Below are positions 93-59,452 of a DNA stretch of 64,000 nucleotides, in pieces. Made by a program: the position numbers and the translations under genes. The DNA comes from an uncultured Oscillospiraceae bacterium (lineage in GTDB: Bacteria > Bacillota > Clostridia > Christensenellales > CAG-138), in the NCBI GenBank assembly GCA_964437665.1, contig CAYTHS010000003.1:205-64204 (forward strand). Reading direction: 5' to 3'. Each line of letters opens with the position of its first letter. Within the stretch, counting starts at the first letter, position 1. Under the pieces are notes generated by a model, which was not told the origin of the DNA, did not search any database, and worked only from the letters and a program-made list of their open reading frames with translations.

Positions 93-254
93 TAGGGTGT
101 GTTCCCAAAATCCGCAAAGCGCATTTTAGCCGTCTCAAGTTGCATATTCTTGTTGAAAAGCCTTGCCGCAGCACCACTGCGCCTGCGTTTTTCGCCTCAA
201 TCTGCAGGCCAATCCAGCAAAACCGCATCTTCCAGACTTTAGAAACACACCCTA
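93..254 (+). mobile_element. MITE copy 1 (162 bp, TIR TAGGGTGTGTT.. / ..AAACACACCCTA, TA at both flanks)
   Basis: Same 162-bp unit as 16598-16759, 39015-39176 (inverted) and 56494-56655. Its ends are reverse complements of each other. Confidence 0.85.
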
Positions 255-15039: not shown

Positions 15040-16479
15040 ATGATGTATTTTTGGCTGGCGCTGCTTGCGCTGGCGGTTGCGTTTCTCGCGGTCGTTCTGA
15101 TCCGCGCGCTGCGCTTCAAACCGAGAGAAGCCGAATCCGTCCAGCCGACCGAAGCCGAAGTGGACGGACAGAAGGCGATCGGCGATCTTGCCGAGATGAT
15201 CCGCTGCAAAACGGTTTCATCCTATGACGAGAGTAAAATCGACTGGGCGGAGTTCAAGAAATTCCGCGAACTGCTCAAGCGGCTGTATCCCGCCGTGTTT
15301 GAAAAGTGCGGCTATGAGGAAATCGGAAAATCCGGCGTCCTCTTTACGCTCCAGGGAAAGAGCGCGGAGAAGCCCTCTGTATTTATGGCGCACTACGACG
15401 TGGTTCCCGTCAACGAAGAGGGCTGGTCGAAACCCGCGTTTGAGGCGGTCATCGAGGACGGCGTTCTCTGGGGACGGGGCACGCTGGACACGAAGTGCAC
15501 GTTGCTCGGCGTGATGGAAGCTGCCGAAAAACTGCTTGAGGACGGATTCATACCCGCGAACGACATGTATTTCGCGTTTGCCGGGGATGAGGAGGTCGCG
15601 GGTGAAACGCAGCCGCTGATCGTCGAAACGCTGCGGCAGCGCGGCGTCGTCCCGGCAATCGTCGTAGATGAGGGTGGCGCGGTCGTCGACGGCGTTTTCC
15701 CTGGAGTGAAACAGCCCTGCGCGTTGATCGGCATCGCGGAAAAGGGACTGCTTGACGCGCAGTTTGTTATCGAAGGCGCGGGCGGACATGCTTCCGCGCC
15801 GCCGCCGCACACCGGGCTCGGCCGGCTGGCGCGCGCTGTTTGCGAGGTAGAAGACAAACCTTTCACACGCGTGTTGACCAAGCCCGTTGCGGAGATGTTT
15901 GATACGCTGGGCAGACACTCTACGTTTCTTTACCGTGTGATCTTCGCAAACCTCTGGTGTTTTCTGCCGCTGCTCGATTCGCTCTGTAAAAAAACCGGCG
16001 GAGAACTCAACGCCATGATGCGTACGACCTGCGCCTTTACGATGGCCGAGGGCAGCAAAACCTCAAACGTGCTTCCGCCGCGCGCGGCGGTGACAGCGAA
16101 TCTCCGCCTGATTACGGGGACGGCCTGCAACGAAACGATCACGGCTCTGCAAAAGCGCGTAAGCGACAAGGACGTTCACGTTTCCAAGCTGCATGGCATG
16201 GATCCGAGTAAGTGCTCGAGAACGGAAGGCTATGGATGGGAAAAGCTGAAGAAGGCGATTTCCGAAACATGGCCCGGCGCGCTGATATCGCCGTATCTGA
16301 TGGTTGCCTGTTCCGATTCCAGGCATTACTGCGCGATTTCGGAAAACGTGTTCCGCTTCTCCGCGATGGCGCTGACAAAGGAAGAACGCGGCTGCATCCA
16401 CGGGCACGACGAACGGATTCCGACCGAAAAGATCGTAAAAACCGTGCAGTTTTACGTGCGGCTGATGCGTGCTCTGTAA
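15040..16479 (+). CDS. membrane-anchored M20 family metallopeptidase / carboxypeptidase
   Basis: N-terminal TM helix, then HYDVVP, GRGTLDTK and DEE metal-site motifs. Confidence 0.85.
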   Translation: MMYFWLALLALAVAFLAVVLIRALRFKPREAESVQPTEAEVDGQKAIGDLAEMIRCKTVSSYDESKIDWAEFKKFRELLKRLYPAVFEKCGYEEIGKSGVLFTLQGKSAEKPSVFMAHYDVVPVNEEGWSKPAFEAVIEDGVLWGRGTLDTKCTLLGVMEAAEKLLEDGFIPANDMYFAFAGDEEVAGETQPLIVETLRQRGVVPAIVVDEGGAVVDGVFPGVKQPCALIGIAEKGLLDAQFVIEGAGGHASAPPPHTGLGRLARAVCEVEDKPFTRVLTKPVAEMFDTLGRHSTFLYRVIFANLWCFLPLLDSLCKKTGGELNAMMRTTCAFTMAEGSKTSNVLPPRAAVTANLRLITGTACNETITALQKRVSDKDVHVSKLHGMDPSKCSRTEGYGWEKLKKAISETWPGALISPYLMVACSDSRHYCAISENVFRFSAMALTKEERGCIHGHDERIPTEKIVKTVQFYVRLMRAL

Positions 16480-16597
16480 CATTCGGGACGGCCATAAAAA
16501 CCGCTCGGGCGCAGAGCGGGCCACGCCGCGGCTGTTATAGACAATCTTGTTTTGATGGACGGAGCCGTCTTCGAGCGAGGACGACTCCGTCTGTCGT

Positions 16598-16759
16598 TAG
16601 GATGTGTTTTTAAAATCACAAAAGCGAATTTCCACCGCCTTGACATGCATATTTTTGTTAAAAAGCCTCGCCGCAGCACCACTGCGCCTGCGTTTATCGC
16701 CTCAATCTGCAAGCCGATCCAGCAAAACTGCATCTTCTAGACTTTAGAAACTCACCCTA
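16598..16759 (+). mobile_element. MITE copy 2 (162 bp)
   Basis: Full-length alignment to copies 1, 3 and 4. TAGGATGTGTTTT.. / ..GAAACTCACCCTA ends. Confidence 0.85.
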
Positions 16760-27114: not shown

Positions 27115-27356
27115 AGGCCGCCGGGAAACCGGCGGCCTGAGACCGTCAAAAAACTTGTTTTTTGACGGGATAACCGCTCTTTGCCTCTCGTCCTTCGGAC
27201 TCCCGGGCGGCAAAGAGCACAGAGAAACCGCCCGTTCCGGGCGATCCGTTCCGCCGGATGAACCGGCGCAGCCGGAAAAGCGGGTTAAGGGCTGTGGCCC
27301 TTAACAATCCCAAGGACTTTTTTGACAGGCTGAGGCCGCCGGGAAACCGGCGGCCT
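27115..27356 (+). mobile_element. hairpin-rich repeat element copy A (core about 27138-27333), flanked by a 24-bp direct duplication of a terminator hairpin
   Basis: AGGCCGCCGGGAAACCGGCGGCCT is present at 27115-27138 and 27333-27356. The core is homologous to 59238-59433. Confidence 0.8.
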
Positions 27357-28491: not shown

Positions 28492-28809
28492 ATTAGCCTC
28501 CTTTGGGCGGACGTGCTGATGTGTTCCTGCTCCTTTCAATTTTCAACGATTCTTTAACAAAAGCCGCTTAAGCGGCAAAGATGTGATATACAATTTTATC
28601 ATAAAGCGTCCGTTCCGGCAAGAAATGAGGCATTCCTCGCGGGAAACCCTGTGTTCCGGCGTTACTGCGCGAATAAAAAACGGCCATACCACAGAACGCG
28701 CGTCAGCCTGCCAAAATAGTCGCCGGGATGTCCAAGACCGGAGTCTTATGTTATATCCGGCGCGGCACCATCGCCCGTTTCGGGCGGTTTCTTTGTGTTT
28801 TTCGCCGCG

Positions 28810-29202
28810 CTATCCGAACAGGTAATACAGCGCGCTCGGGAAAATCTGGTGCAGCAGCACCATTACAAGAAGCAGAACAATCAGATAACGATGCCACACG
28901 AGGAAGGCCTTCTTCTTTGTGAAATAAAATGTCGCGCCGAACGCCGCCACCAGCACGATGGAAAACCATTCCAGCGTACCCGTGTGCAGCCGGAATCCGC
29001 CGAACACGAGCAGCCCGTGCAGCAGCGCAAGCAAAACGATTGCAATCCCGAGCGGCTTGTGGACCTTTCGCAGGACTTTCATAAGCTTTGGGTACCAATT
29101 GCCCCGGAAGCGGCGTACCCGCATATGGAACTGCCGCAAAAGGAACGGCAGCACCATAATCACAAGCAAAGAGATATTCAGCCAGCCAAGAAAACGAATC
29201 AT
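28810..29202 (-). CDS. 4-TM His-rich membrane protein (possible b-type cytochrome-like partner)
   Basis: 130 aa with four TM helices and conserved-looking His residues in the helices (LLHGL, VWHRY, LLHQIF). Confidence 0.5.
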   Translation of the reverse strand: MIRFLGWLNISLLVIMVLPFLLRQFHMRVRRFRGNWYPKLMKVLRKVHKPLGIAIVLLALLHGLLVFGGFRLHTGTLEWFSIVLVAAFGATFYFTKKKAFLVWHRYLIVLLLVMVLLHQIFPSALYYLFG

Positions 29203-37317: not shown

Positions 37318-38004
37318 ATGCCGTCGCCTGCGATCCAAAATAAACGCCAGCGCTCCGAATCGTTCCCGGTCGGGGCGATCCTTGCGCTTGTCGGCGGATT
37401 TCTGGACGCGTATACCTACGTGTCTCGCGGCGGGGTGTTTGCCAACGCGCAGACGGGGAACATGGTCCTGCTCGGCCTGCGGCTGGCGGATGGGCGCTGG
37501 AGTGAGGCGCTGTATTATCTCCTGCCGATTATTGCGTTTGCCGCGGGTGTGATACTTGCCGAGCGCGTACAGTCTGCGCTTAAATACGCGAGGGCGGTCC
37601 ACTGGCGGCAGATCGTTATCCTGCTTGAACTGGCGCTGCTCTCCGGCATCGGCTTCGTGCCGGTGGGCGCGTGTAATCCGTATGTGAACGTCGCCGTGTC
37701 GTTTGTGTGCGCGCTGCAGGTCGAGAGCTTCCGCACGCTGCACGGGCTGGCTTTTGCGACCACCATGTGCACCGGAAACCTCAGGAGCGGTACGGAACTG
37801 CTGTTCCGGTACTTAAGGGAGAGGAATAAATCGCTTCTCAAAAGCAGCCTGAAGTATTATGGTATTATCGCTGTGTTCATTCTGGGCGCGGTCACGGGGA
37901 TGTTTGCGACCAACGCGTTTGCAGAACGCGCGGTGTGGATCCCCGCATCGCTGCTGCTGCTCGTCCTGATACTGCTGCACAGGCGCGAGCCGGAAACGTT
38001 CTGA
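37318..38004 (+). CDS. YoaK/DUF1275 family membrane protein
   Basis: GGFLDAYTYVSRGGVFANAQTGNMVLLG signature; 6 TM. Confidence 0.8.
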   Translation: MPSPAIQNKRQRSESFPVGAILALVGGFLDAYTYVSRGGVFANAQTGNMVLLGLRLADGRWSEALYYLLPIIAFAAGVILAERVQSALKYARAVHWRQIVILLELALLSGIGFVPVGACNPYVNVAVSFVCALQVESFRTLHGLAFATTMCTGNLRSGTELLFRYLRERNKSLLKSSLKYYGIIAVFILGAVTGMFATNAFAERAVWIPASLLLLVLILLHRREPETF

Positions 38005-38177
38005 TCCGGCGGCTGCCCGAAAAAAGTGTGAACTTAAAGAAAGAATACGGCTCCTTTCGCGGTAAGATGGAAACCGGAGAGGGGGCGTTTTTCATATGTA
38101 TCGTGTGTATTTCACCGCATATCAAAGTTTTCTGGAAGCAAGCGGCCCGCTTAACGACGCGGAACGGGGGCTGTGGG

Positions 38178-38783
38178 TTACTTTTTGAGCGCAAATACGC
38201 CAAGGTTCCTGTCCGGAGCGGTGGAAGTGACCTTCAGGTGCGTCAGGTCCGCCTTAAAGGGCACGAAGCTTTCCCAAAGGATAGAGAGCAGCACGCCCGC
38301 CTGCGCCGGTGCGGCCGAGGCGAGCGTCATATGCGGCGTCCAGTTGTTCCGGCTAAGCGAATACAAACAATCCTTGTCCGTACAGCAGTGGTCGAAGCGC
38401 TCGTGTATTTTTGCGTGAAGGGCGATCAAGGCGCGGCTTGCCGACGGGGCGAGAAAACAGTACGGCGCACCCGGGAAGAACCCGATATGGTCGAAATTCA
38501 GCGTGAACGCATGCCGCCGCGCGGCGATGGGCTCGATCCAGCCGAGGAGGCTCGCGTCGTCCACGCCGGAATAAATACCGAAGGTGACGTGCGGCTCGTA
38601 AGCGTCCGGCTGGAAGCCGCCTGCAAGCAATTTCCGCTTGATTTTTTCGACCTCGCCTGCCGCGCGCGCGTCAAACGTGCCCATAACGCAAAGCGTCCGC
38701 GATGGATTCAAAATACGCCTCCCTGCCCGATTGAACGGGGGATTGTTTGTGTCCATGATACCATCTGTGTGGGAAGTTGTCAC
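38178..38783 (-). CDS. 2H phosphoesterase / 2'-5' RNA ligase (LigT-like) family protein
   Basis: Two HxT motifs (PHVTFG, PHMTLA). The start is uncertain; the internal Met at about 38684 is possible. Confidence 0.7.
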   Translation of the reverse strand: MTTSHTDGIMDTNNPPFNRAGRRILNPSRTLCVMGTFDARAAGEVEKIKRKLLAGGFQPDAYEPHVTFGIYSGVDDASLLGWIEPIAARRHAFTLNFDHIGFFPGAPYCFLAPSASRALIALHAKIHERFDHCCTDKDCLYSLSRNNWTPHMTLASAAPAQAGVLLSILWESFVPFKADLTHLKVTSTAPDRNLGVFALKK

Positions 38784-39001
38784 TCGAATGAGAAGGAAAA
38801 GGATTGTGTCGAATAAAATTCATCGCCATGTGGACAACGCCTTTATTGGGGAGACATGAATGTTATCCCGAAACATACGGATCGATCAGATATTACACAA
38901 CAGCGCTGTTTTCTATACCCGACGCCTGCTGCATTTGCCCTGAACCCATGCCTTGAGGCCGGCTGAACATCATTTTTCTGCATGCAGACTGTACTGCTAA
39001 T

Positions 39002-39014
39002 TAGGGTGCGTTTC
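39002..39014 (+). repeat. orphan 13-nt MITE terminus (TAGGGTGCGTTTC) abutting MITE copy 3
   Basis: Identical to the left terminus of copy 4 (56494-56506) and directly adjacent to the full copy. Confidence 0.55.
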
Positions 39015-39176
39015 TAGGGTGTGTTTCAAAAGTCTGAAAGATGCAGTTTTGCTGGATCGGCTTGCAGATTGAGACGAAAAACACAGGCGCAGTGGTACTG
39101 TGGCGAGGCTTTTCAACGAAAACATGCAATTCATGGCGGCGGAAATGCGCTTTTGTGATTTTTGAAACACACCCTA
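39015..39176 (-). mobile_element. MITE copy 3 (162 bp, inverted relative to the other copies)
   Basis: Reverse complement aligns over the full length to copies 1, 2 and 4. Confidence 0.85.
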
Positions 39177-39252: not shown

Positions 39253-40158
39253 CTATAGTATGATCAAATCGCCAAGTTTTGAATTGATCTCATCAGGAGA
39301 AAAAAACGCGAATCCAGCTTCAGGGAAAAAAGTGCATTCGCCAAAATATACTTTGTCTTTTATGCTGTAAAAATCAATTCTAACAAATTTTATCCCACGA
39401 GATAATTCACAAGCCATTTTCAACATTTGATCGAGTTTTTCCGGCTTTTGAATATGTTTTTCTCCATCAGTTGGGTAACAATATGACCATTCCAAAAACT
39501 CCCATTGCGTTGTATACAAATTACGCTTGTGCCGGCTGAACCTGTCAAAATCAACCTGGATAAAAACAGGTTCCTCATCAAAACAAAATATCTTATAATC
39601 CTTCAGTTCAAAACCGGACTCGTCTTCCATATAGCTTTCAGCAATAATCCGCGGCTTGCAGTGCTTATACGGCCATTCTCTGTAATTACTATAAAACTCA
39701 CGTCTTAATCGCTTTTCGATTATTTTTTTCGCCGCTTCCCTGTCAAACCGCGCCTTATCCCTGCAAATAACGATAGTGCCGGAATCATGCGTGCATTTCA
39801 ATACAAACTTCTCAGGCAGTTTTGCAAAATCAATTTCATCGAAATGTTCCCAAACTCCTAAGGTTGGAATGATAAACTCTTCACCAAACCTCCCCGCGAC
39901 ATATTCTTTTACGCTATGCTTATCCACCATCATCGTATATTCTGGGCGTCTATCATTTATCTTTAGATATTGCAGCTTTTCGTTAAACGTTCTGGGATTG
40001 TCGAGATTCAATGTTAATCCTGTCCGCATTTTATACTGCAATTTCAAAAAAGCTTCATCTGAAAGCCAACGCAATTTCAATCGATTCAGAACGAATACCG
40101 CTATTATCCTGGGATTATTAAGGACCTTCTTAATCTTTCTAATTAATGCACGTCCCAT
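39253..40158 (-). CDS. ATP-grasp fold amidoligase (TupA-like) family protein
   Basis: NPRTFNEKLQYLK, FVLKCTHDSG, DYKIFCF and RIDFY..YFGECTFFP motifs. AT-rich gene. Confidence 0.85.
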   Translation of the reverse strand: MGRALIRKIKKVLNNPRIIAVFVLNRLKLRWLSDEAFLKLQYKMRTGLTLNLDNPRTFNEKLQYLKINDRRPEYTMMVDKHSVKEYVAGRFGEEFIIPTLGVWEHFDEIDFAKLPEKFVLKCTHDSGTIVICRDKARFDREAAKKIIEKRLRREFYSNYREWPYKHCKPRIIAESYMEDESGFELKDYKIFCFDEEPVFIQVDFDRFSRHKRNLYTTQWEFLEWSYCYPTDGEKHIQKPEKLDQMLKMACELSRGIKFVRIDFYSIKDKVYFGECTFFPEAGFAFFSPDEINSKLGDLIIL

Positions 40159-50487: not shown

Positions 50488-50934
50488 GTGCTGATCGGGT
50501 CGTTCGAGCATATGTTTGACGCAAAAGGACGCGTGTTTATACCCGCGAAGTGGAGGGAGAGCGTCGGCGAGACGCTCGTGCTTACGCTCGGCTTGCTGGA
50601 TTCGAAGATGGCGAAGTGCCTTTACGGCATGTCGATGCCGGAGTGGGAACGATTTTCAGAGAAGCTTTCCACCCTGCCGGTGAGCGACGCCAGCGGGCAG
50701 GCGGTCCGCCGCCGGCTGTATTCATTGGCTGCGGCGTGCGATTTGGACAAACAGGGCCGCATCCTGATCCCTGCCGGCCTGCGCGAACAGGCGGGGCTTG
50801 TCAAGGACGCGACGCTGATCGGCGTAAACGAACGCATCGAAATCTGGAACCCGGCGGCCTATTTGGAGTACACCGAAAAAAGCGAAGAAAATTACGGTGC
50901 GGAAATGGCGCATCTGGCGGAACTCGGCATATGA
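50488..50934 (+). CDS. mraZ: transcriptional regulator MraZ
   Basis: Two SpoVT/AbrB-like halves (DAKGRVFIPAKWR, DKQGRILIPAGLR). GTG start at 50488 after an AGGAGGG RBS. Confidence 0.9.
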   Translation: MLIGSFEHMFDAKGRVFIPAKWRESVGETLVLTLGLLDSKMAKCLYGMSMPEWERFSEKLSTLPVSDASGQAVRRRLYSLAAACDLDKQGRILIPAGLREQAGLVKDATLIGVNERIEIWNPAAYLEYTEKSEENYGAEMAHLAELGI

Positions 50935-51872
50935 GTACGGCGTTCCGACATATCCCCGTTTTGCTGGACGAAGCGCTCACGCTGCTCTATCCCGAGCGCG
51001 GGGGCGTGTTTGTAGACGGGACGCTCGGCGGCGGCGGTCACGCGGAGGCCGTTCTGCGGCGGCTGCCGGAATCCGGCCGGCTGATCGGCATCGACCGGGA
51101 CGAGGAAGCGCTCTGCGCGGCGAAGGAACGGCTCGGCGTATTCGGCGGGCGTTTCACCGCGCTGCACGGCAATTTTTTCAACATGAAGGAACTGCTTGCG
51201 GCCGAAGGCGTACACAAGGTTGCAGGCATCCTGCTCGACCTTGGCGTCTCGTCCTATCAGCTCGATACGCCCGGGAGGGGATTTTCCTATAAATATGACG
51301 CGCCGCTGGACATGCGCATGGACCAGGGCGCGCCGCTGTCGGCATACGACGTGATCAACACCTACACTGAGGAACAGCTCGCGCGGGTGATATGGGAATA
51401 CGGCGAGGAACGGTTTAGCCGCCGTATTGCGCGGCGCATCGTATGCGCGCGTGCGGAAAAGCCGGTCGAAACCACGCTGGAACTCGCCGGAATCGTGAAA
51501 GCCGCGATACCCGCGAAATTCCGCAACGAACCGCAGCATCCCGCGCGCCGGACGTTTCAGGCGGTGCGCATCGAGGTCAACGAGGAGCTCAAAGGCCTGG
51601 ATGGGGCGGTGGAGGAAGCCTGCGATCTGTTGCAAAAAGGCGGCAGACTGTGTATAATTACATTTCATTCATTGGAGGATCGAATTGTCAAGCAGGCGTT
51701 CCGCCGCTTTGAGAACCCCTGCACCTGTCCGCCTTCGGCACCGATCTGCATCTGCGGAAAGGAACCCAAGGCGAAGATCCTCACAAAGAAGCCGCTGACC
51801 TGCTCGGACCGCGAGGAAGCCGAAAATCCCCGCTCGTCCTGCGCAAAGATGCGGTGCATCCAGAGAATCTAG
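50931..51872 (+). CDS. rsmH: 16S rRNA (cytosine1402-N4)-methyltransferase
   Basis: HIPVLLDE, DGTLGGGGH and LDLGVSSYQLD motifs. ATG 50931 overlaps the mraZ stop. Confidence 0.92.
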   Translation: MSTAFRHIPVLLDEALTLLYPERGGVFVDGTLGGGGHAEAVLRRLPESGRLIGIDRDEEALCAAKERLGVFGGRFTALHGNFFNMKELLAAEGVHKVAGILLDLGVSSYQLDTPGRGFSYKYDAPLDMRMDQGAPLSAYDVINTYTEEQLARVIWEYGEERFSRRIARRIVCARAEKPVETTLELAGIVKAAIPAKFRNEPQHPARRTFQAVRIEVNEELKGLDGAVEEACDLLQKGGRLCIITFHSLEDRIVKQAFRRFENPCTCPPSAPICICGKEPKAKILTKKPLTCSDREEAENPRSSCAKMRCIQRI

Positions 51873-51949
51873 CGCGGCCAAGGCGTTTTTCGCTCCGCGC
51901 GGATACTTGCGCAGAGCATGGCGCGGCGCTAGAATAGAGGAGATTGTAA

Positions 51950-52540
51950 TTGGACATCCGTTTTGACGACGAACCGAAGAAAGGCCGTTCACCGACGACG
52001 AGGCTTCATCTGCCAAACCAGGCGGAGGAAGACGGCGATACGTCCCGGCCGGGGAAAAGCGGGCGGCGCGGCCGGACAGCCTCCGGCGGCGCGAAGGAAC
52101 CGCAGGTACGTGTTGAAAAGCCGGAACTCAATCCACTCGCGCGTATCGGGCTAATCCTCTGCGGGTTCATTTTTTCGGGCATGGTGCTCTTCACGCTTAC
52201 GGGTTACGAGCGCATTACCCGCGCGCATGCCGACATCAACTCGCTGAACACCGAGATTGAGACGACCAAGCTGCGCATCAACGAACTGGACGTGCAGATC
52301 GAATGCGCCGTGACGATTCAGGACGCGCAGGCGGTCGCCGAGGCATATGGCATGCAGTACCCCGAGCAGTCGCAGTACGTGAAAATCGGCGATGCGCTCC
52401 CGTTTTCCGGCAGTGCGCCGCTCACCGATACGCAAACCGACGGGGATACGCAGCCGGAGCAAGGCACAGGGGATACGCAGGACACGACACAAACACCCGG
52501 TACGGGGGATACGGGTGATTCGACGGACGGGGGGGGCTGA
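51950..52540 (+). CDS. ftsL: FtsL-like cell division protein with long basic N-terminus and GDTQ-repeat tail
   Basis: Single TM helix followed by a coiled coil (INSLNTEIETTKLRINELDVQIE), in the position between rsmH and pbp. TTG start after an AGAGGAG RBS. Confidence 0.65.
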   Translation: MDIRFDDEPKKGRSPTTRLHLPNQAEEDGDTSRPGKSGRRGRTASGGAKEPQVRVEKPELNPLARIGLILCGFIFSGMVLFTLTGYERITRAHADINSLNTEIETTKLRINELDVQIECAVTIQDAQAVAEAYGMQYPEQSQYVKIGDALPFSGSAPLTDTQTDGDTQPEQGTGDTQDTTQTPGTGDTGDSTDGGG

Positions 52541-52582
52541 CCGTCCCAGGACGGCTGATCCTTATGAAAGGACGACCCTGAA

Positions 52583-54784
52583 ATGGCAAAAAAGGCAGCG
52601 CCCGCTCCCAAAATCAAACGCAAGCTTGTACTTCTTATGGTATTTGCCGGCATCCTCGTGTTCGTTTTGACACTGCGCCTCGCGCAGGTGATGCTGGTTC
52701 TGGGACCGGACTATCAGGCAAAGGCGCAGACGCAGTGGACCCGGCGGCAGAACCTGACCGCGCAGCGCGGCAGGCTGGTCGACCGCAACGGGCTGGTGCT
52801 CGCCCAGAGCGGTACGGCATACCGTGTTTTGGCGAACCCAGAGGAAATTGCGGAGGATGACCGCGTCCGCATCGCGACGGAAGTTTCCGACATTCTCGAG
52901 CTGAATTACGATTACGTGCTTGAGAAAATTTCTCCGAGTACGGACCCGGAAAAGAAAAAGCTGCAGGTGCAGCTTAAGCGTCAGGTGGAAAGCTCCGTGG
53001 TCGATCAATTGGAGGCGCTTCAACTCGGCAACGGCATCAGCTTTACGACCGACATGAAGCGCTATTACCCGTTTGGCCAGCTTTTTACGCAGTTGCTTGG
53101 CTTCACCGGTATCGACAGCGAAGGGCAGACCGGGCTTGAGGCGGAGTACGACAGTTATCTTGCCGGCGAAGACGGACTGCTGGTCACCGAGGTCGACCGG
53201 AAGAACCAGCCGCTTTCTTACGGCACGGAAAACTATTTTGCGCCGACGGACGGTTATGACATTACGATTACGTGCGATTCGGTCACCCAGACCTATCTGG
53301 AAAAATACGTCGAACAGTGTTATGAGCTCAACCGTGCCACGAGCGTGAGCGGAATCGTTATGGACCCGAAGACGGGCCAGATTCTGGCGATCACCACATA
53401 CCCTTCCTTCAATCTGAACGAACCCCCGCGAGATCAGGTTACGGAACTGATGGACATGTCCCGCGTGCGGATTGTTACGGACACCTACGAAGCCGGGACG
53501 GCGTTCGATTTTATTACGGTTGCCGCGGCGCTGGACAGCGGGAATACTTCCCTTGAAGAATCCTACGACTGCAGCGGGTCGCGCATCTTCCGTCTTGAAA
53601 AGGTCGTCGGGTGGGACACGGAGGACCACGGAACGCTTTCGCTGACAAAAGCGTTCGGCATCTCCAACAGTACGGCGATGATGGACATCGCGGCCGGCAT
53701 GGGCGTGGATACGTTTTACGATTACATCTATGCGTTCGGCTTCGGCGAATCCACCGAGTGCGGCATTCCCAGCGAAGATACCGGCGAAGTCGTACACCGC
53801 AAGTACATCCGTGCGAGCGATCTTGCCCGCCTCTCCTTTGGCGAAACGATTACCACGACCGGCATCGGCATGGTGAACGCCTTTTGTGCGGCGATCAACG
53901 GAGGCGTGCTCATGCAGCCGTATGTGATCGATCAAGTCACCGATACGGACGGCAACTTGGTGCTGCAGAACGAGCCGACCATCCTGCGGCGCGTGATTAA
54001 TTCTTCTACGAGCGCGACGCTGCGCACGCTGATGCAGTCCAACGTGGAGAGCGGCAATGCGAGCAACGCCCAGGTACTCAACTACACTATGGGCGGCGTA
54101 ACGGGCGTTTCCCGCAAGTTTGAAGAGGATGGCGAAACGGCGTCCAACGTGCGTGTGGTTTCGACATTCATCGGGTTTCTGCCGGCGGACGATCCGGAAC
54201 TGGTGTGCATGCTCCTTATCGACGAGCCTGCCGTGCCTGTGATGGAAGCGGGCAGCATCGCGGCGCCGTGGGTCAAGGCGATCTTTACGGACCTGGTGCA
54301 GTATTACGGCATCCTGCCGGACACCACGACGGCGACCGCCACTGTGCCTGACGTGACCGGCGAAACCGGACAGGACGCGGTGTATCATCTTGAGCAGGCG
54401 GGATTTGCCACCAACCTCATCGACGACGAGGAAGCGGCGGTTGTGATTTCACAGTACCCTGCCGCGGGCGAAACGGTTTCCAAGGGCTCTATTGTGATTG
54501 TCTACACGACCATGACGACATTTAACGCCCAGGGCGTGTACAAAGAGCAGGTGCGAGTTCCGAACCTGCTGGAAAAACGCAGGCAGGATGCGTTCGACAG
54601 GCTGGCGGAACTGGGGCTGGTTCTTGCGTTCGATAAGACGCAGTGCACCGGGCAGATCATCTCGCAGTCCATCGAGCCGGACACGCTGGTGGACCCCGGC
54701 ACGACGATTTACGTGGAGTTCCCGACGCCGACGCCGAGCCCGACGCCGGATCCCGCGCAGGCGACTCCGGAGCCGGAAGAGTAA
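52583..54784 (+). CDS. class B penicillin-binding protein (PBP2B/SpoVD/FtsI type) with two PASTA domains
   Basis: N-terminal TM anchor plus PBP dimerisation and transpeptidase regions. Two C-terminal PASTA-like repeats (VPDVTGETGQDAV.., VPNLLEKRRQDAF..) and a Pro/Thr-rich tail. Confidence 0.88.
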   Translation: MAKKAAPAPKIKRKLVLLMVFAGILVFVLTLRLAQVMLVLGPDYQAKAQTQWTRRQNLTAQRGRLVDRNGLVLAQSGTAYRVLANPEEIAEDDRVRIATEVSDILELNYDYVLEKISPSTDPEKKKLQVQLKRQVESSVVDQLEALQLGNGISFTTDMKRYYPFGQLFTQLLGFTGIDSEGQTGLEAEYDSYLAGEDGLLVTEVDRKNQPLSYGTENYFAPTDGYDITITCDSVTQTYLEKYVEQCYELNRATSVSGIVMDPKTGQILAITTYPSFNLNEPPRDQVTELMDMSRVRIVTDTYEAGTAFDFITVAAALDSGNTSLEESYDCSGSRIFRLEKVVGWDTEDHGTLSLTKAFGISNSTAMMDIAAGMGVDTFYDYIYAFGFGESTECGIPSEDTGEVVHRKYIRASDLARLSFGETITTTGIGMVNAFCAAINGGVLMQPYVIDQVTDTDGNLVLQNEPTILRRVINSSTSATLRTLMQSNVESGNASNAQVLNYTMGGVTGVSRKFEEDGETASNVRVVSTFIGFLPADDPELVCMLLIDEPAVPVMEAGSIAAPWVKAIFTDLVQYYGILPDTTTATATVPDVTGETGQDAVYHLEQAGFATNLIDDEEAAVVISQYPAAGETVSKGSIVIVYTTMTTFNAQGVYKEQVRVPNLLEKRRQDAFDRLAELGLVLAFDKTQCTGQIISQSIEPDTLVDPGTTIYVEFPTPTPSPTPDPAQATPEPEE

Positions 54785-54865
54785 AGAAATTTTCCCGACG
54801 CGCAGGCGGAACGGGAAACGGACCAAAACGGCGATTGTGCCGCAAACCAACGGGAGGAATCAAAC

Positions 54866-56299
54866 ATGCTGCTTTCGGAACTTGCAATGGCGACCGGGCT
54901 GCGCTACGAAGGCGAAGACCGGGATATCGTATCCATCGAATACGATTCGCGGAAAGTGAAACAGGGGAGTATGTTTTGCTGCATCGTCGGCGCGATGTTC
55001 GACGGGCATACGTTTGCAAAAGGCGCCGTGGAAAGCGGCGCGACCGCGCTTTTAGTCGAACGCGAGCTGCCGGTGCCAGTGCCGCAAATCGTGGTGAAAA
55101 ACGCGCGAAAAGCCATGGCGGAAATGGCGGCGGCGTTTTATGGATATCCCCAGCGTGAAATGATGGTGCTTGGCGTGACCGGCACCAACGGCAAGACCAC
55201 GACCACCTATATGGTCAAGGCCATTGCCGAGCAGGCGGGCAGAAAGGTCGGTGTGATCGGCACCATCCGCAACATGATCGGTTCGGAGAGCATCCACACC
55301 GAGCGCACTACGCCGGAGTCGGTCGATCTCTTCCGGCTGCTGCGGAGGATGGCGGACGCGCATGTGGACCTCGTGGTCATGGAGACCAGTTCTCACGCGC
55401 TTGCGCAATACCGCGTGCACGGCATCAAATTTGACGTGGGTTTGTTCACAAACCTGACGCAGGACCATCTGGACTATCATAAATCGTTCGACGAATATCT
55501 GCAGGCGAAAAAAACTCTGTTCCTCAACAGCAAGAAGGCGGTCGTCAATGTGGACGATCCATATTCGAGCCGCATTATGGAGGGGCTTTCCATTCCGATT
55601 CTCACATTCGGCGTGCGCGACCGCGCGGACATTTCCGCGACGGATATCGACATCACCGCAGGCGGCGTGCAGTTCGACATGCATACGCCGGAAGGCGACG
55701 TGCTGATGCACCTTGCGATACCGGGGCTTTTTTCGGTGTTCAACGCTATGGGCGCCGTCGGCATTACACAGTCCGTCGGGATTCCGCTCGGCGCGATCAA
55801 GGCGGGACTGGAGTCTCTGCGCAGCGTTTCCGGCAGGCTGGAGTCCGTTCCGACGGGAAAGGGCTTTTCGGTGTTTGTTGACTATGCGCACACGCCGGAC
55901 GCGCTGGAAAACGTGCTCAAGACTGCGCGGCAGTTCGCAAAAGGGCGCGTCGTTTGCGTGTTTGGCTGCGGCGGTGATCGCGACCGCGCGAAGCGGTCCA
56001 TCATGGGAGAAATTGCGGGCAGGTTCTCCGAATTTGCAGTGATTACCAGCGATAACCCGCGCACAGAAGCGCCTATGACGATCATCGACTCCATCGAGGA
56101 GGGGATGAAGCGCAGCGGTACGAAGTATACGATCATCGAAAACCGCAAGGAAGCTATCCGCTATGTGCTGATGACTGCAAAGAAGGACGACGTGATCATG
56201 ATCGCCGGGAAAGGCCACGAAAACTACCAGGAGATCAACGGCACCAAGTATCATTTTGACGACAAAGAGATTGTCGTCGAAATACTCAGGGAGATGTAG
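54866..56299 (+). CDS. murE: UDP-MurNAc-L-Ala-D-Glu:meso-diaminopimelate ligase
   Basis: GVTGTNGKTTT P-loop. The DNPR motif (SDNPRTE) is typical of meso-DAP-adding MurE. Confidence 0.92.
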   Translation: MLLSELAMATGLRYEGEDRDIVSIEYDSRKVKQGSMFCCIVGAMFDGHTFAKGAVESGATALLVERELPVPVPQIVVKNARKAMAEMAAAFYGYPQREMMVLGVTGTNGKTTTTYMVKAIAEQAGRKVGVIGTIRNMIGSESIHTERTTPESVDLFRLLRRMADAHVDLVVMETSSHALAQYRVHGIKFDVGLFTNLTQDHLDYHKSFDEYLQAKKTLFLNSKKAVVNVDDPYSSRIMEGLSIPILTFGVRDRADISATDIDITAGGVQFDMHTPEGDVLMHLAIPGLFSVFNAMGAVGITQSVGIPLGAIKAGLESLRSVSGRLESVPTGKGFSVFVDYAHTPDALENVLKTARQFAKGRVVCVFGCGGDRDRAKRSIMGEIAGRFSEFAVITSDNPRTEAPMTIIDSIEEGMKRSGTKYTIIENRKEAIRYVLMTAKKDDVIMIAGKGHENYQEINGTKYHFDDKEIVVEILREM

Positions 56300-56313
56300 G
56301 GCGGACCTTTTGA

Positions 56314-56365
56314 TCGCACCTGCGTTCCGCGGGGAGTTCCCGTCGGGGCAAGGGTGCGGTTTTTC
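56314..56365 (+). terminator. putative terminator after murE
   Basis: CGCACC...GGTGCG stem enclosing a CGGGGA-GT-TCCCG hairpin, followed by GTTTTT. Confidence 0.45.
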
Positions 56366-56493
56366 GTGCACTGCGAGATTGTGCGCAGCATGGTAAATAG
56401 AGTATAATAGCAGCGTTAAAGTTTCTTTAACAAAGCGGGCGCTCATTGTTCCCCGGCGGAGGACAAAGAGCACGAAAAAAACCCGTATGGGAG

Positions 56494-56655
56494 TAGGGTG
56501 CGTTTCAAAAATCACAAAAGCGCATTTTCGCCGCCTCGGCATGCATATTTTTGTTGAAAAGCCTCGCCGCAGCACCACTGCGCCTGCGTTTATCGCCTCA
56601 ATCTGCAAGCCGATCCAGCAAAACTGCATCTTCTAGACTTTAGAAACACACCCTA
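56494..56655 (+). mobile_element. MITE copy 4 (162 bp) between murE and mraY
   Basis: Full-length alignment with the other copies. TAGGGTGCGTTTC.. / ..GAAACACACCCTA ends. Confidence 0.85.
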
Positions 56656-56751
56656 GGGCGCGCCTGCGGACGCGGCGCGGTCGAATGGTCCGGGTGAAAG
56701 GCTCCGCCTTTAGACCCGAAAGATTATTGAACAGGTTGGTATTGTATCGTT

Positions 56752-57756
56752 ATGTTTCGAGTTTTTCTAACTGCACTGAGCGCGTTTGTAATTGTATGGG
56801 CGCTCGGCCCGCTGTTTATCCCAATGCTCAAACGGTTCAAATTCGGGCAGATCGAGCGCGAACTTGGGCCGGAGTCGCATAAAAAGAAGCAGGGCACGCC
56901 GACAATGGGTGGGATCATGACGCTGCTGGCGGTGACGATTGCTTCGCTGATCTTCGGGCTGGAGGGCATGGAGTTCGTAATGCCAGCGCTGCTGGTGACG
57001 GTCGCATTCGGCGTCGTCGGGTTTTTGGACGATTTTTTGAAGATCCGCAGAAAGCAGAATCTGGGGCTTCGCGCCTACCAGAAGATCATTGCGCAGCTTC
57101 TGATCGCGGTACTGGTGGCGGTTTGGGCGTATCGTTCGCCGCTGCTGGGGCCGACGCTGTATCTGCCGGTCTCCGGCGGAGAGTGGAACATCGGCGGCTG
57201 GTACATCCCGCTCGTGATCTTCGTCATTGTGGCGGAAGTTAACGCTGTGAACCTCACCGACGGGCTGGACGGGCTGGCCACCAGCACGACGATGGTCTAT
57301 GCGCTGTTCATGGCCGGCATCTTTGCCGTGATGGCGACGTCCGCCAATCAGGAAGGCGAAATGCTGCTCGGCTCCAACTACATCGGCATGACGGTATTTT
57401 CCGCGGCGATCGTCGGGGCTTCGGTCGGTTTTTTGATCTACAACACGTATCCCGCGCGTGTGTTCATGGGGGACACCGGTTCCCTCGCGCTCGGCGGGGC
57501 GGTTTCGATGCTTGCGATTCTGAGCCGGTCGTTCCTGATTCTGCCGATCATGGGCTTCTGTTTTCTCGCAAGCGCGCTTTCGGTGGTACTGCAGGTGGCG
57601 AGCAACAAGCTCAACCACGGCAAGCGGATGTTCAAGATGGCGCCGATCCACCATCACTTCGAGCTTAAAGGCGTGCCCGAACCGCGCATCGTCGTGATGT
57701 ATACGCTCGTAACGGCGGTTCTCTGTGCGATTTGCTTCCTGCCGTACCTGCGCTGA
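56752..57756 (+). CDS. mraY: phospho-N-acetylmuramoyl-pentapeptide transferase
   Basis: 10-TM protein with NAVNLTDGLDGLA and MGDTGSLALGG motifs. Confidence 0.93.
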   Translation: MFRVFLTALSAFVIVWALGPLFIPMLKRFKFGQIERELGPESHKKKQGTPTMGGIMTLLAVTIASLIFGLEGMEFVMPALLVTVAFGVVGFLDDFLKIRRKQNLGLRAYQKIIAQLLIAVLVAVWAYRSPLLGPTLYLPVSGGEWNIGGWYIPLVIFVIVAEVNAVNLTDGLDGLATSTTMVYALFMAGIFAVMATSANQEGEMLLGSNYIGMTVFSAAIVGASVGFLIYNTYPARVFMGDTGSLALGGAVSMLAILSRSFLILPIMGFCFLASALSVVLQVASNKLNHGKRMFKMAPIHHHFELKGVPEPRIVVMYTLVTAVLCAICFLPYLR

Positions 57757-57857
57757 CGGATATTGGTTTGGCCGGAGAGCCGGTCTTTTGACGGATATTT
57801 TTATAAATTGCGCCCGAAGAACGCTTCGGGCCTTATTTAAAGGGGTGCGATACAACT

Positions 57858-59207
57858 ATGGCGCGAAAGCATACGGCGCTGATCGTCGGCATGGCGAAAA
57901 GCGGAATCGGCGCGGCAAAACTGCTCTTTAAAAGCGGCTGGCGCGTGATCGTCAACGATAAAAAGCCGGAGATTCCCGGCCTGGCCGAAGCGCTGCGCGG
58001 GATAACCGCCGAATACCGGTTGGGCGAGCGCCCGGAAACGCTGCTCGACGGCGTGGAGCTGATGGTGATCAGCCCCATCATCCCGATGAGCGTTCCGTTC
58101 GTGATCGAGGCCAAACGGCGCGGCATGGAGGTCGTCAGCGAAATCGAGCTGGGGTACCGCTACAGCCATGCGGATTTCGTCTGCATCACGGGCACCAACG
58201 GCAAGACCACCTGCACCGCGCTGACGGGCGAAATGTTCATTGCCGGCGGGCGGCACACGTTCGTGCTCGGCAACATCGGCGTGCCGATCACCGAGCACGC
58301 GCTCGAAACCAGGGAAGGCGACGTGGTCGTCGCCGAGACCGCCGGGCTTCAGCTCGAAGGCAACGTGCGCTTCCATGCGCGCGCGGCGGGCGTTTGCAAC
58401 ATCACGGAAGACCATCTCGACCACTTCGGCACCATGGAAAACTATATTGCCGCCAAGTGCAAGATTTTTGACAACCAGACGGAAAACGATGTGGCGGTGC
58501 TCAACTACGACGATCCGGTCGTGCGCGGCATGGCGCGGCTTACGCCCGCGAAAGTCTATTACTTTTCGCGCGAAAGCGAAGTGCCGCGCGGGCTGTTTTT
58601 GCGCGGAAACACCGTGATCTACCGGGACGAAAACGGCGAATGGCCGCTGATTGAAACGAACGAAATCCGTATCCCCGGCGGGCATAACCTCGAAAACGCG
58701 ATGCTTTCTTCTCTGCTCGCGCTCGGGATGGGAATCAGCGAAGACGCGGTGCGTAAGGCGCTGCGCGCATTCCCCGGCGTGGAACACCGCATCGAGTTCG
58801 TGCGCGAATTTGGCGGCGTTGCATACATCAACGACTCCAAGGGGACGAATCCGGACAGCACGATCAAGGCCGTACAGGCCATGACGCGGCCGACGGTGCT
58901 CATTCTCGGCGGGTTCGACAAGCACAGCGATTTTCACGAACTGTTTTCGCATTTTCCGGGCAGCGAGGTCAAGGCGGCGGTCGTGCTCGGCGAAACGAAG
59001 GAGAAGATTCTGCAGACCGCGGCGGACGCGGGGCTTTCCGGCCTCTGCCGCACGGCGGACGCCTTCGAAGAGGCCGTGCTGCTTGCGCGCTCGCTGGCCG
59101 AACCCGGCGACGCGGTGCTGCTTTCGCCCGCGTGTGCAAGCTGGGACATGTTCGATAACTTCGAGCAGCGCGGGGACGTGTTCAAAGAGATTGTCAACGA
59201 ATTTTAA
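57858..59207 (+). CDS. murD: UDP-N-acetylmuramoylalanine-D-glutamate ligase
   Basis: GMAKSGIGAAKLL Rossmann N-terminus and ITGTNGKTT P-loop. Confidence 0.92.
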   Translation: MARKHTALIVGMAKSGIGAAKLLFKSGWRVIVNDKKPEIPGLAEALRGITAEYRLGERPETLLDGVELMVISPIIPMSVPFVIEAKRRGMEVVSEIELGYRYSHADFVCITGTNGKTTCTALTGEMFIAGGRHTFVLGNIGVPITEHALETREGDVVVAETAGLQLEGNVRFHARAAGVCNITEDHLDHFGTMENYIAAKCKIFDNQTENDVAVLNYDDPVVRGMARLTPAKVYYFSRESEVPRGLFLRGNTVIYRDENGEWPLIETNEIRIPGGHNLENAMLSSLLALGMGISEDAVRKALRAFPGVEHRIEFVREFGGVAYINDSKGTNPDSTIKAVQAMTRPTVLILGGFDKHSDFHELFSHFPGSEVKAAVVLGETKEKILQTAADAGLSGLCRTADAFEEAVLLARSLAEPGDAVLLSPACASWDMFDNFEQRGDVFKEIVNEF

Positions 59208-59217
59208 CGGACATAAT

Positions 59218-59452
59218 AAAACGCCCAAGGGGGCGTTTGAGGCCGCCCCAAAACCAGTTTTTTGACGGGACAACCGTTCTTTGCCTCTCGTCCTTCGGAC
59301 TCCCGAGCGGCAAAGAACACAGAGAAATCGCCCGTTCCGGGCGATCCGTTGCGCCGGATAAACCGGCACAGCCGGAATATGCGGGTTAAGGGTTACGACC
59401 CTTAACAATCCCAGGGGCTTTTTTGACAGGCTGAAACGCCCAAGGGGGCGTT
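59218..59452 (+). mobile_element. hairpin-rich repeat element copy B (core about 59238-59433), flanked by a 19-bp direct duplication of the murD terminator hairpin
   Basis: AAACGCCCAAGGGGGCGTT is present at 59218-59236 and 59434-59452. The core is homologous to 27138-27333. Confidence 0.8.

Follow-up and report, generated by a model that had tools for sequence, protein, structure and literature searches.

The four copies of a 162-bp repeat in the window, a stretch of 64,000 nucleotides from an uncultured Oscillospiraceae bacterium, belong to a MITE family that shares its ends with an IS of the IS5 family. We consider it most probable (probability about 0.85) that this MITE is moved in trans by an ISLpl3-like IS5-family transposase, which inserts it into YTAR sites and duplicates the TA. 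The initial annotation had also recognized a MITE family and had placed its mobilization with IS630/Tc1-mariner elements. The first of these assignments holds, since the four dispersed copies carry no gene and have terminal inverted repeats and unrelated flanks. The second does not, as the autonomous elements detected with these ends all encode a transposase of the IS5 family.

The positions and strands given for the copies in the initial annotation were borne out by direct reading and by a gap-free alignment that included 20 bp of flank per side. The length of each copy, both TAs included, is exactly 162 bp, again as described, and inside the flanking TAs lies a core of 158 bp (GGGTG...CACCC). 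All four copies start with TAGG(G/A)TG.GTT and end with AAC.CACCCTA. Similarity among them ends abruptly at the TA on both sides, and the sequences beyond are unrelated. An interior 22-mer occurs four times in the window, compared to 0 expected occurrences in 100 shuffles. Pairwise identity of the cores ranges from 84 to 93%, and copy 4 is nearest to the family consensus. Recent activity of the window copies is not evident because of this mutual divergence of 7-16%; the copies in this lineage seem to be old and have perhaps lost their mobility. The host, an uncultured member of the Clostridia, has a G+C content of ~57%. Metagenome contigs from several samples match the window at 99.8-100% identity. 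The GyrB of the window shares 99% identity with a JGI metagenome protein and 91-92% with proteins on two contigs of 3.6-3.9 Mb, and named relatives at a greater distance carry the annotations Oscillospiraceae, Clostridia, Candidatus Aphodomorpha, Christensenellales and Feifaniaceae.

All four copies are intergenic, which agrees with the first description and was confirmed from the positions of the neighbouring genes. Copy 1 (93-254, plus strand, core 95-252 between the TAs) lies 223 bp past the stop codon of a 401-aa gene at 478-1683 on the minus strand. Copy 2 (16598-16759, plus strand, core 16600-16757) is located between an M20 peptidase gene (15040-16479, plus strand) and the next plus-strand gene. 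Its ends are the most degenerate of the window copies (GGATGTGTTTT.. and ..AAACTCACCC). The left terminal inverted repeat of copy 2, a presumed transposase-binding end, spans 16600-16619 on the plus strand (GGATGTGTTTTTAAAATCAC). The right one spans 16738-16757 and reads GGGTGAGTTTCTAAAGTCTA on the minus strand, with a 19/20 match to the end of the IS at locus L093. The JGI annotation places a 61-aa ORF without a Pfam hit at 16555-16740 of the window (3229-3414 of contig L070), almost wholly within copy 2. It is the sole gene call that overlaps any of the copies and probably a false one due to the repeat.

Copy 3 is inverted (39015-39176, minus strand, core 39017-39174) and lies between the convergent genes at 37935-38816 (plus strand) and 39253-40158 (minus strand). 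Directly abutting it, a solo 13-bp fragment of the terminal repeat is found at 39002-39014 on the plus strand (TAGGGTGCGTTTC). Fragment and copy end together read TA-GGGTGCGTTTC-TA-GGGTGTGTTTC, and the terminal repeat of the MITE itself holds a YTAR site (C-TA-A). The fragment could be the leftover of an older end that was hit by copy 3, or it could be a duplication of the terminus. The remainder of an older element is absent from the far side of copy 3. Copy 4 (56494-56655, plus strand, core 56496-56653) sits in a cell-wall cluster, between the gene of a 477-aa Mur ligase (54866-56299) and mraY (56752-57756). Gene order in this part of the window (50550-59207) is mraZ, rsmH, a small gene, a PBP gene with PASTA domain, the Mur ligase gene, mraY and murD, and it recurs in the related genomes L157, L158 and L160. 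A single Mur ligase gene is thus found between the PBP gene and mraY, a place where many bacteria have murE and murF.

As a whole, the MITE is an imperfect palindrome. The terminal 18-20 bp (GGGTGTGTTTCWAAARTC) are present at both ends of all copies with a few substitutions, and the ends match each other over ~20 bp (GGGTGTGTTTC-W-AAA-R-TC). The terminal inverted repeat of the initial annotation is therefore present, but its length of about 14 bp was set too low. To define the wider distribution, the terminal 18-mer GGGTGTGTTTCWAAARTC was scanned against one genome per GTDB species (596 Gb), which yielded at least 65 loci. Many lone matches fell in unrelated phyla, at the chance level for an 18-mer in 596 Gb. 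Among the matches listed, a concentration was seen in a few Clostridia MAGs that are labelled Oscillospiraceae, Eubacteriales, Clostridiales or Christensenellaceae. Using a profile made from the four window copies, full-length relatives were detected in those same MAGs. They amount to at least 25 full-length copies beyond the window, and they fall into four subfamilies. An alignment of 29 copies from the four subfamilies (159-187 bp) extends from end to end with a mean column identity of 66%. The related MAG JAVBRU01 carries at least 16 copies according to the 18-mer scan; CAYUUB01, DAOTGE01 and JAVBRU01 are MITE-rich MAGs. A scan of viral contigs with the terminal 18-mer returned one chance match, which had no TA flanks. 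A literature search by terminal sequence and host taxa, with incomplete coverage, retrieved no account of this MITE family. The family is new as a member of its kind, whereas TA-flanked hairpin MITEs and MITEs paired with IS5-family elements are already known.

The ends of the MITE led to an autonomous element in Clostridiales bacterium UBA5448 (locus L054). Here, two exact inverted copies of the 18-mer delimit an element of 920 bp with a TA outside each end, and the termini of this IS match those of the MITE. Two overlapping ORFs lie between the terminal repeats. ORF 1 matches DUF4096, described as 'putative transposase of IS4/5 family' (Pfam E 2e-28), and ORF 2 matches DDE_Tnp_1 (Pfam E 9e-19). 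Both also match the NCBIfam model transpos_IS5_3, 'IS5 family transposase', with 126.8 and 137.6 bits at a cut-off of 110. No IS630 model was matched, and the protein is not of the DDE_3/IS630 type. A AAA AAG stands in the overlap of the two ORFs, with ORF 2 in frame -1.

Metagenome contigs were then searched with the fused L054 protein, independently of the terminal repeats, and 80 loci were kept. They include ~20 complete IS copies of 899-920 bp with the ends GGGTGTGTTTCTAAA.. (or GAGTG..). Nearly all of these copies have a TA outside both ends, and their flanks follow a YTA/TAR pattern. Of 21 complete copies, 19 have the A AAA AAG heptamer at the same place in the ORF overlap. The transposase is predicted to be made from both ORFs via a programmed -1 frameshift at this heptamer. 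In a plasmid collection, the nearest named relative is ISLpl3 (PGAP name 'IS5-like element ISLpl3 family transposase'), with ~50% amino acid identity. None of the 80 kept loci derives from the samples of this organism; the metagenome scan relied on exact peptide seeds, which makes this a weak negative. The partner IS is also absent from the window: tblastn with the partner transposase found no IS5-type transposase there, in line with the initial annotation, which had listed no transposase gene.

Comparison of MITE and IS ends gave matches at up to 19 of 20 positions, and similarity drops further in. The transposase tblastn found no IS coding remnant inside the MITE, and the MITE profile found no shared interior. 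With matching ends and different interiors, the MITE is of the kind in which the resemblance to the partner is confined to the ends. The IS group itself sheds non-autonomous derivatives. Internally deleted copies of 311 bp keep both terminal repeats together with the last 40-50 transposase codons and were observed at no fewer than five different TA-flanked sites in metagenome contigs (L138, 1371-1681; L139, 433-743; L143, 1457-1766; L147, 441-751; L148, 1371-1682). These copies represent an intermediate size class. Together, the data support an IS5-family partner for the MITE.

The target site of the IS could be read directly at L054, where the element interrupts a kinase-like gene. In silico, we removed the core, the core with one TA, or the core with both TAs. 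Only removal of the core with one TA yielded a continuous ORF, of 222 aa. This restored ORF has ~480 protein matches, and the 120 listed are 214-268 aa long with 60-78% identity and a query coverage of 96-100%. Aligned with eight homologues, it shows no gap at the junction, and the residues E, L, K, L, S and Q (in ELIKLSQ) are invariant. As the gene is restored in this way only, the L054 IS duplicates exactly 2 bp, TA, within TTAA. An insertion-site logo, as proposed in the initial annotation, could be derived from the flanks of 30 elements. The counts are C16/T13 at position -3, T28 at -2 and A28 at -1, followed by T29 at +1, A28 at +2 and A18/G11 at +3. This pattern, YTA-element-TAR, is consistent with YTAR as the target and with a duplicated central TA. 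It seems likely from the ends shared with the IS that the MITE duplicates TA as well, and the view that the TA at its borders most probably stems from target duplication is thereby strengthened, a 2-bp TA duplication being directly visible for the full-length IS.

An exact empty site was not obtained for any MITE copy. Contigs that encode the exact flanking proteins (L001 and L070-L074) are 99.8-100% identical to the window and all carry the copies; the presence/absence polymorphism among sister strains that the initial annotation had in view was not seen in these near-identical strain contigs. In three related genomes (GyrB 87-92% identical), the orthologous spacer ahead of mraY lacks the MITE. 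These spacers are too diverged to align with the window, which leaves the junction unreadable. In silico excision of the 29 MITE copies restored no gene. Long ORFs that appeared after excision were rejected as antisense artefacts or as two adjacent genes read together.

According to the reading that we prefer, the element with its 158-bp core and without a gene of its own would rely on a transposase provided in trans. The 0.9-kb IS5-family IS would supply this DDE transposase from its two ORFs via the -1 frameshift. The enzyme would recognize the ~20-bp terminal repeats (GGGTGTGTTTCWAAARTC) and insert the element at YTAR sites, where the central TA becomes duplicated, presumably by a cut-and-paste mechanism. 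Mobilization of the 158-bp element by this particular IS5-type transposase is what we infer from the shared ends.

That an IS630/Tc1-mariner-type transposase mobilizes the MITE and duplicates TA appears very improbable. The TA on both sides of every window copy would suit such an enzyme, since TA duplication is the classical signature of IS630, and RUP in pneumococcus provides a precedent (PMC2229807). However, the TA flanks do not discriminate in favour of IS630, because the ISLpl3-like subgroup of IS5 has them likewise, as is seen for the named element ISLpl3 itself. Every autonomous element with MITE ends, that is L054 and the ~20 metagenome copies, carries IS5-family DDE_Tnp_1 and not DDE_3/IS630. 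We reject the IS630 attribution on the ground that no IS630-type gene or protein accompanies these ends in any locus examined.

A further property of the MITE concerns its fold. On the minus strand of the window, copy 4 forms a single hairpin over the length of the element with -76 kcal/mol (z = -8.4), whereas the plus strand reaches -48 kcal/mol (z = -3.5). The homologous strand folds better in all 29 copies, by 20 kcal/mol on average. The consensus structure of this better-folding strand has 57 pairs, and 96.1% of 1648 alignment cells are paired. Compensatory changes between subfamilies were found at 27 of the 57 pairs. The observed pairing values were not attained in any of 500 column shuffles, and in slid controls 34-51% of the cells were paired. 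For the opposite strand, the consensus contains only 40 pairs with -25 kcal/mol. G·U cells outnumber A·C cells by 196 to 21 (~9:1), the G·U positions vary between subfamilies, and in no subfamily does a pair have A·C as its consensus. A palindrome that is of consequence only as duplex DNA should lack such asymmetry, and the single-stranded form of one strand therefore seems to be constrained. Double-stranded cut-and-paste does not account for a hairpin that is conserved with G·U on one strand only.

Of the 29 copies in the window and the loci L008-L069, 21 have their weaker-folding strand on the strand that is G-rich locally (p = 0.024). This bias with respect to GC skew hints at a preferred orientation relative to replication or to the main direction of transcription. 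Orientation relative to the flanking genes showed no significant bias, with 9 to 5 copies counted by a script that used crude gene calls and mis-called mraY at copy 4; with copy 4 re-scored by hand, the count is 10 to 5.

Promoter and terminator scans were carried out on the four spacers that bear the copies. The initial annotation had assigned a TTGACA-like hexamer to each copy and had considered read-out transcription from an internal promoter. An exact TTGACA is found in copy 2 only, the other copies having TTGCAT or ATGCAT at this place. No sigma-70-like promoter was predicted inside any copy, which speaks against read-out of this kind. Terminator-like stems were weak and limited to copies 1 and 2.

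The hairpin raises two other explanations, which have to be weighed against mobilization by the IS5-type transposase. The MITE might primarily be a structured RNA or a single-stranded DNA hairpin module, with transposition as a mere means of spread. Such a module might serve, for example, as a target of double-strand RNase, as a stabilizer or attenuator of transcripts, or as a replication-associated hairpin. The reading is compatible with IS5-type mobilization, and we regard it as doubtful. The depth of the fold on one strand (z = -8.4), the 96% of paired cells, the 27 of 57 compensatory pairs and the 0 of 500 shuffles argue for it, as do the predominance of G·U (196) over A·C (21) on the strand that folds better in 29 of 29 copies and the modest bias in orientation with respect to GC skew (21 of 29, p = 0.024). 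Transcripts of other bacterial MITEs also form such hairpins (PMC2229807). On the other hand, Rfam 15 yielded nothing at the gathering score over the window and no hit with E ≤ 1 for copy 4, the element lacks a predicted promoter, and gene-relative orientation lacks a significant bias (9 to 5, or 10 to 5 when re-scored). Four subfamilies also provide few independent events for compensatory changes, and the palindrome could stem from the origin of the element by fold-back of one end.

Least probable of all is a REP/BIME-like or IS200/IS605-type palindrome that a Y1 (HUH) transposase moves in single-stranded form. In favour of this, the MITE forms a long strand-specific hairpin. IS200/IS605 elements, however, lack terminal inverted repeats, do not duplicate their target and have subterminal hairpins. 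The MITE is bounded by true terminal inverted repeats and, beyond these, by a constant TA, and it has its ends in common with a DDE IS for which TA duplication is proven; the surroundings of the copies revealed no Y1 transposase. Within the preferred reading of an IS5-type MITE, it is a tentative and rather doubtful proposal that the hairpin is selected on one strand and acts as RNA or single-stranded DNA, rather than being just passive IS5-type debris. The compensatory changes across four subfamilies, the ~9:1 ratio of G·U to A·C and the bias relative to GC skew would point that way.

Apart from the MITE, the window contains a second repeat family, which is rich in stem-loops and has a core of ~197 bp. 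Its two full copies (27139-27335 and 59239-59436) are 88% identical. A diverged partial copy lies at 28702-28817 on the minus strand, and the end of L041 contains another partial copy. The two full copies each lie between direct duplicates of their own terminator-like hairpin, which reads GGCCGCCGGGAAACCGGCGGCCT at 27116-27138 and 27334-27356 for the first copy and AACGCCCAAGGGGGCGTT to either side of the second. In the related genomes L157 and L158, the spacer between murD and an isochorismatase gene contains one terminator hairpin and lacks the element; it is 57 bp long, compared to 411 bp. It looks as if rho-independent terminators are the insertion sites of this second family, with a duplication of ~18-23 bp that includes the hairpin. 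No Rfam match was obtained for it, and it may be more unusual than the IS5-type MITE.

Among known systems, the partner IS resembles ISLpl3 and other two-ORF IS5 elements of ~0.85-0.92 kb. It has DUF4096 and DDE_Tnp_1, the A AAA AAG heptamer, GGG...CCC ends and TA flanks. In the L. brevis plasmid NC_008499, ISLpl3 begins after CTA with GGGACTGTCTGAAAACTA and ends in CCC before TAA; ISLpl3 and a relative in Kurthia have GGG/GG...CC ends with TA on both sides. The partner transposase is, however, only ~50% identical to that of ISLpl3 from Lactobacillaceae, and the sequence of the terminal repeat is unlike. Moreover, the window element is not an IS but belongs to a class of non-coding derivatives of 158 bp.

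MITEs associated with the IS5 family have been described before, namely BrickBuilt, MITE239 and MITE464 in Porphyromonas gingivalis and ATR in Neisseria meningitidis (PMC4596501). Like the present family, they are short and non-coding and have only the terminal inverted repeats in common with IS5-family elements, from which their parent was inferred (PMC4596501). Their sequences, hosts and partner IS are unrelated to those of the present family. BrickBuilt also carries an internal minisatellite and has variable target duplications, whereas the present family shows constant TA flanks and a full-length hairpin. The classical MITEs of 100-200 bp with 5′-TA-3′ termini, Correia/NEMIS, ERIC/IRU and RUP (PMC2229807), are similar in that they have terminal inverted repeats, are mostly intergenic and sometimes lie within operons, and give transcripts that fold as one long stem-loop (PMC2229807). 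They have no sequence similarity to the present family. RUP has been assigned to IS630-Spn1, and no parent is known for Correia or ERIC, whereas an IS5-family type of parent is identified here.

Our data indicate that TA flanks alone do not diagnose mobilization by IS630, as the ISLpl3-like subgroup of IS5 duplicates TA at YTAR. They link a MITE superfamily of four subfamilies in uncultured gut or anaerobe Clostridia to a likely partner IS. One of the copies sits within the cell-wall (dcw) operon, and the 61-aa ORF over another illustrates that MITE repeats can draw false gene calls. If the hairpin is indeed selected on one strand, it could signal the processing or stability of host transcripts in a manner that depends on orientation. 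Alternatively, the hairpin could be an intermediate by which a very short element more easily unites both ends for the DDE transposase. The strand-specific hairpin offers a modest lead on whether selection at the level of RNA or single-stranded DNA shapes short bacterial MITEs.
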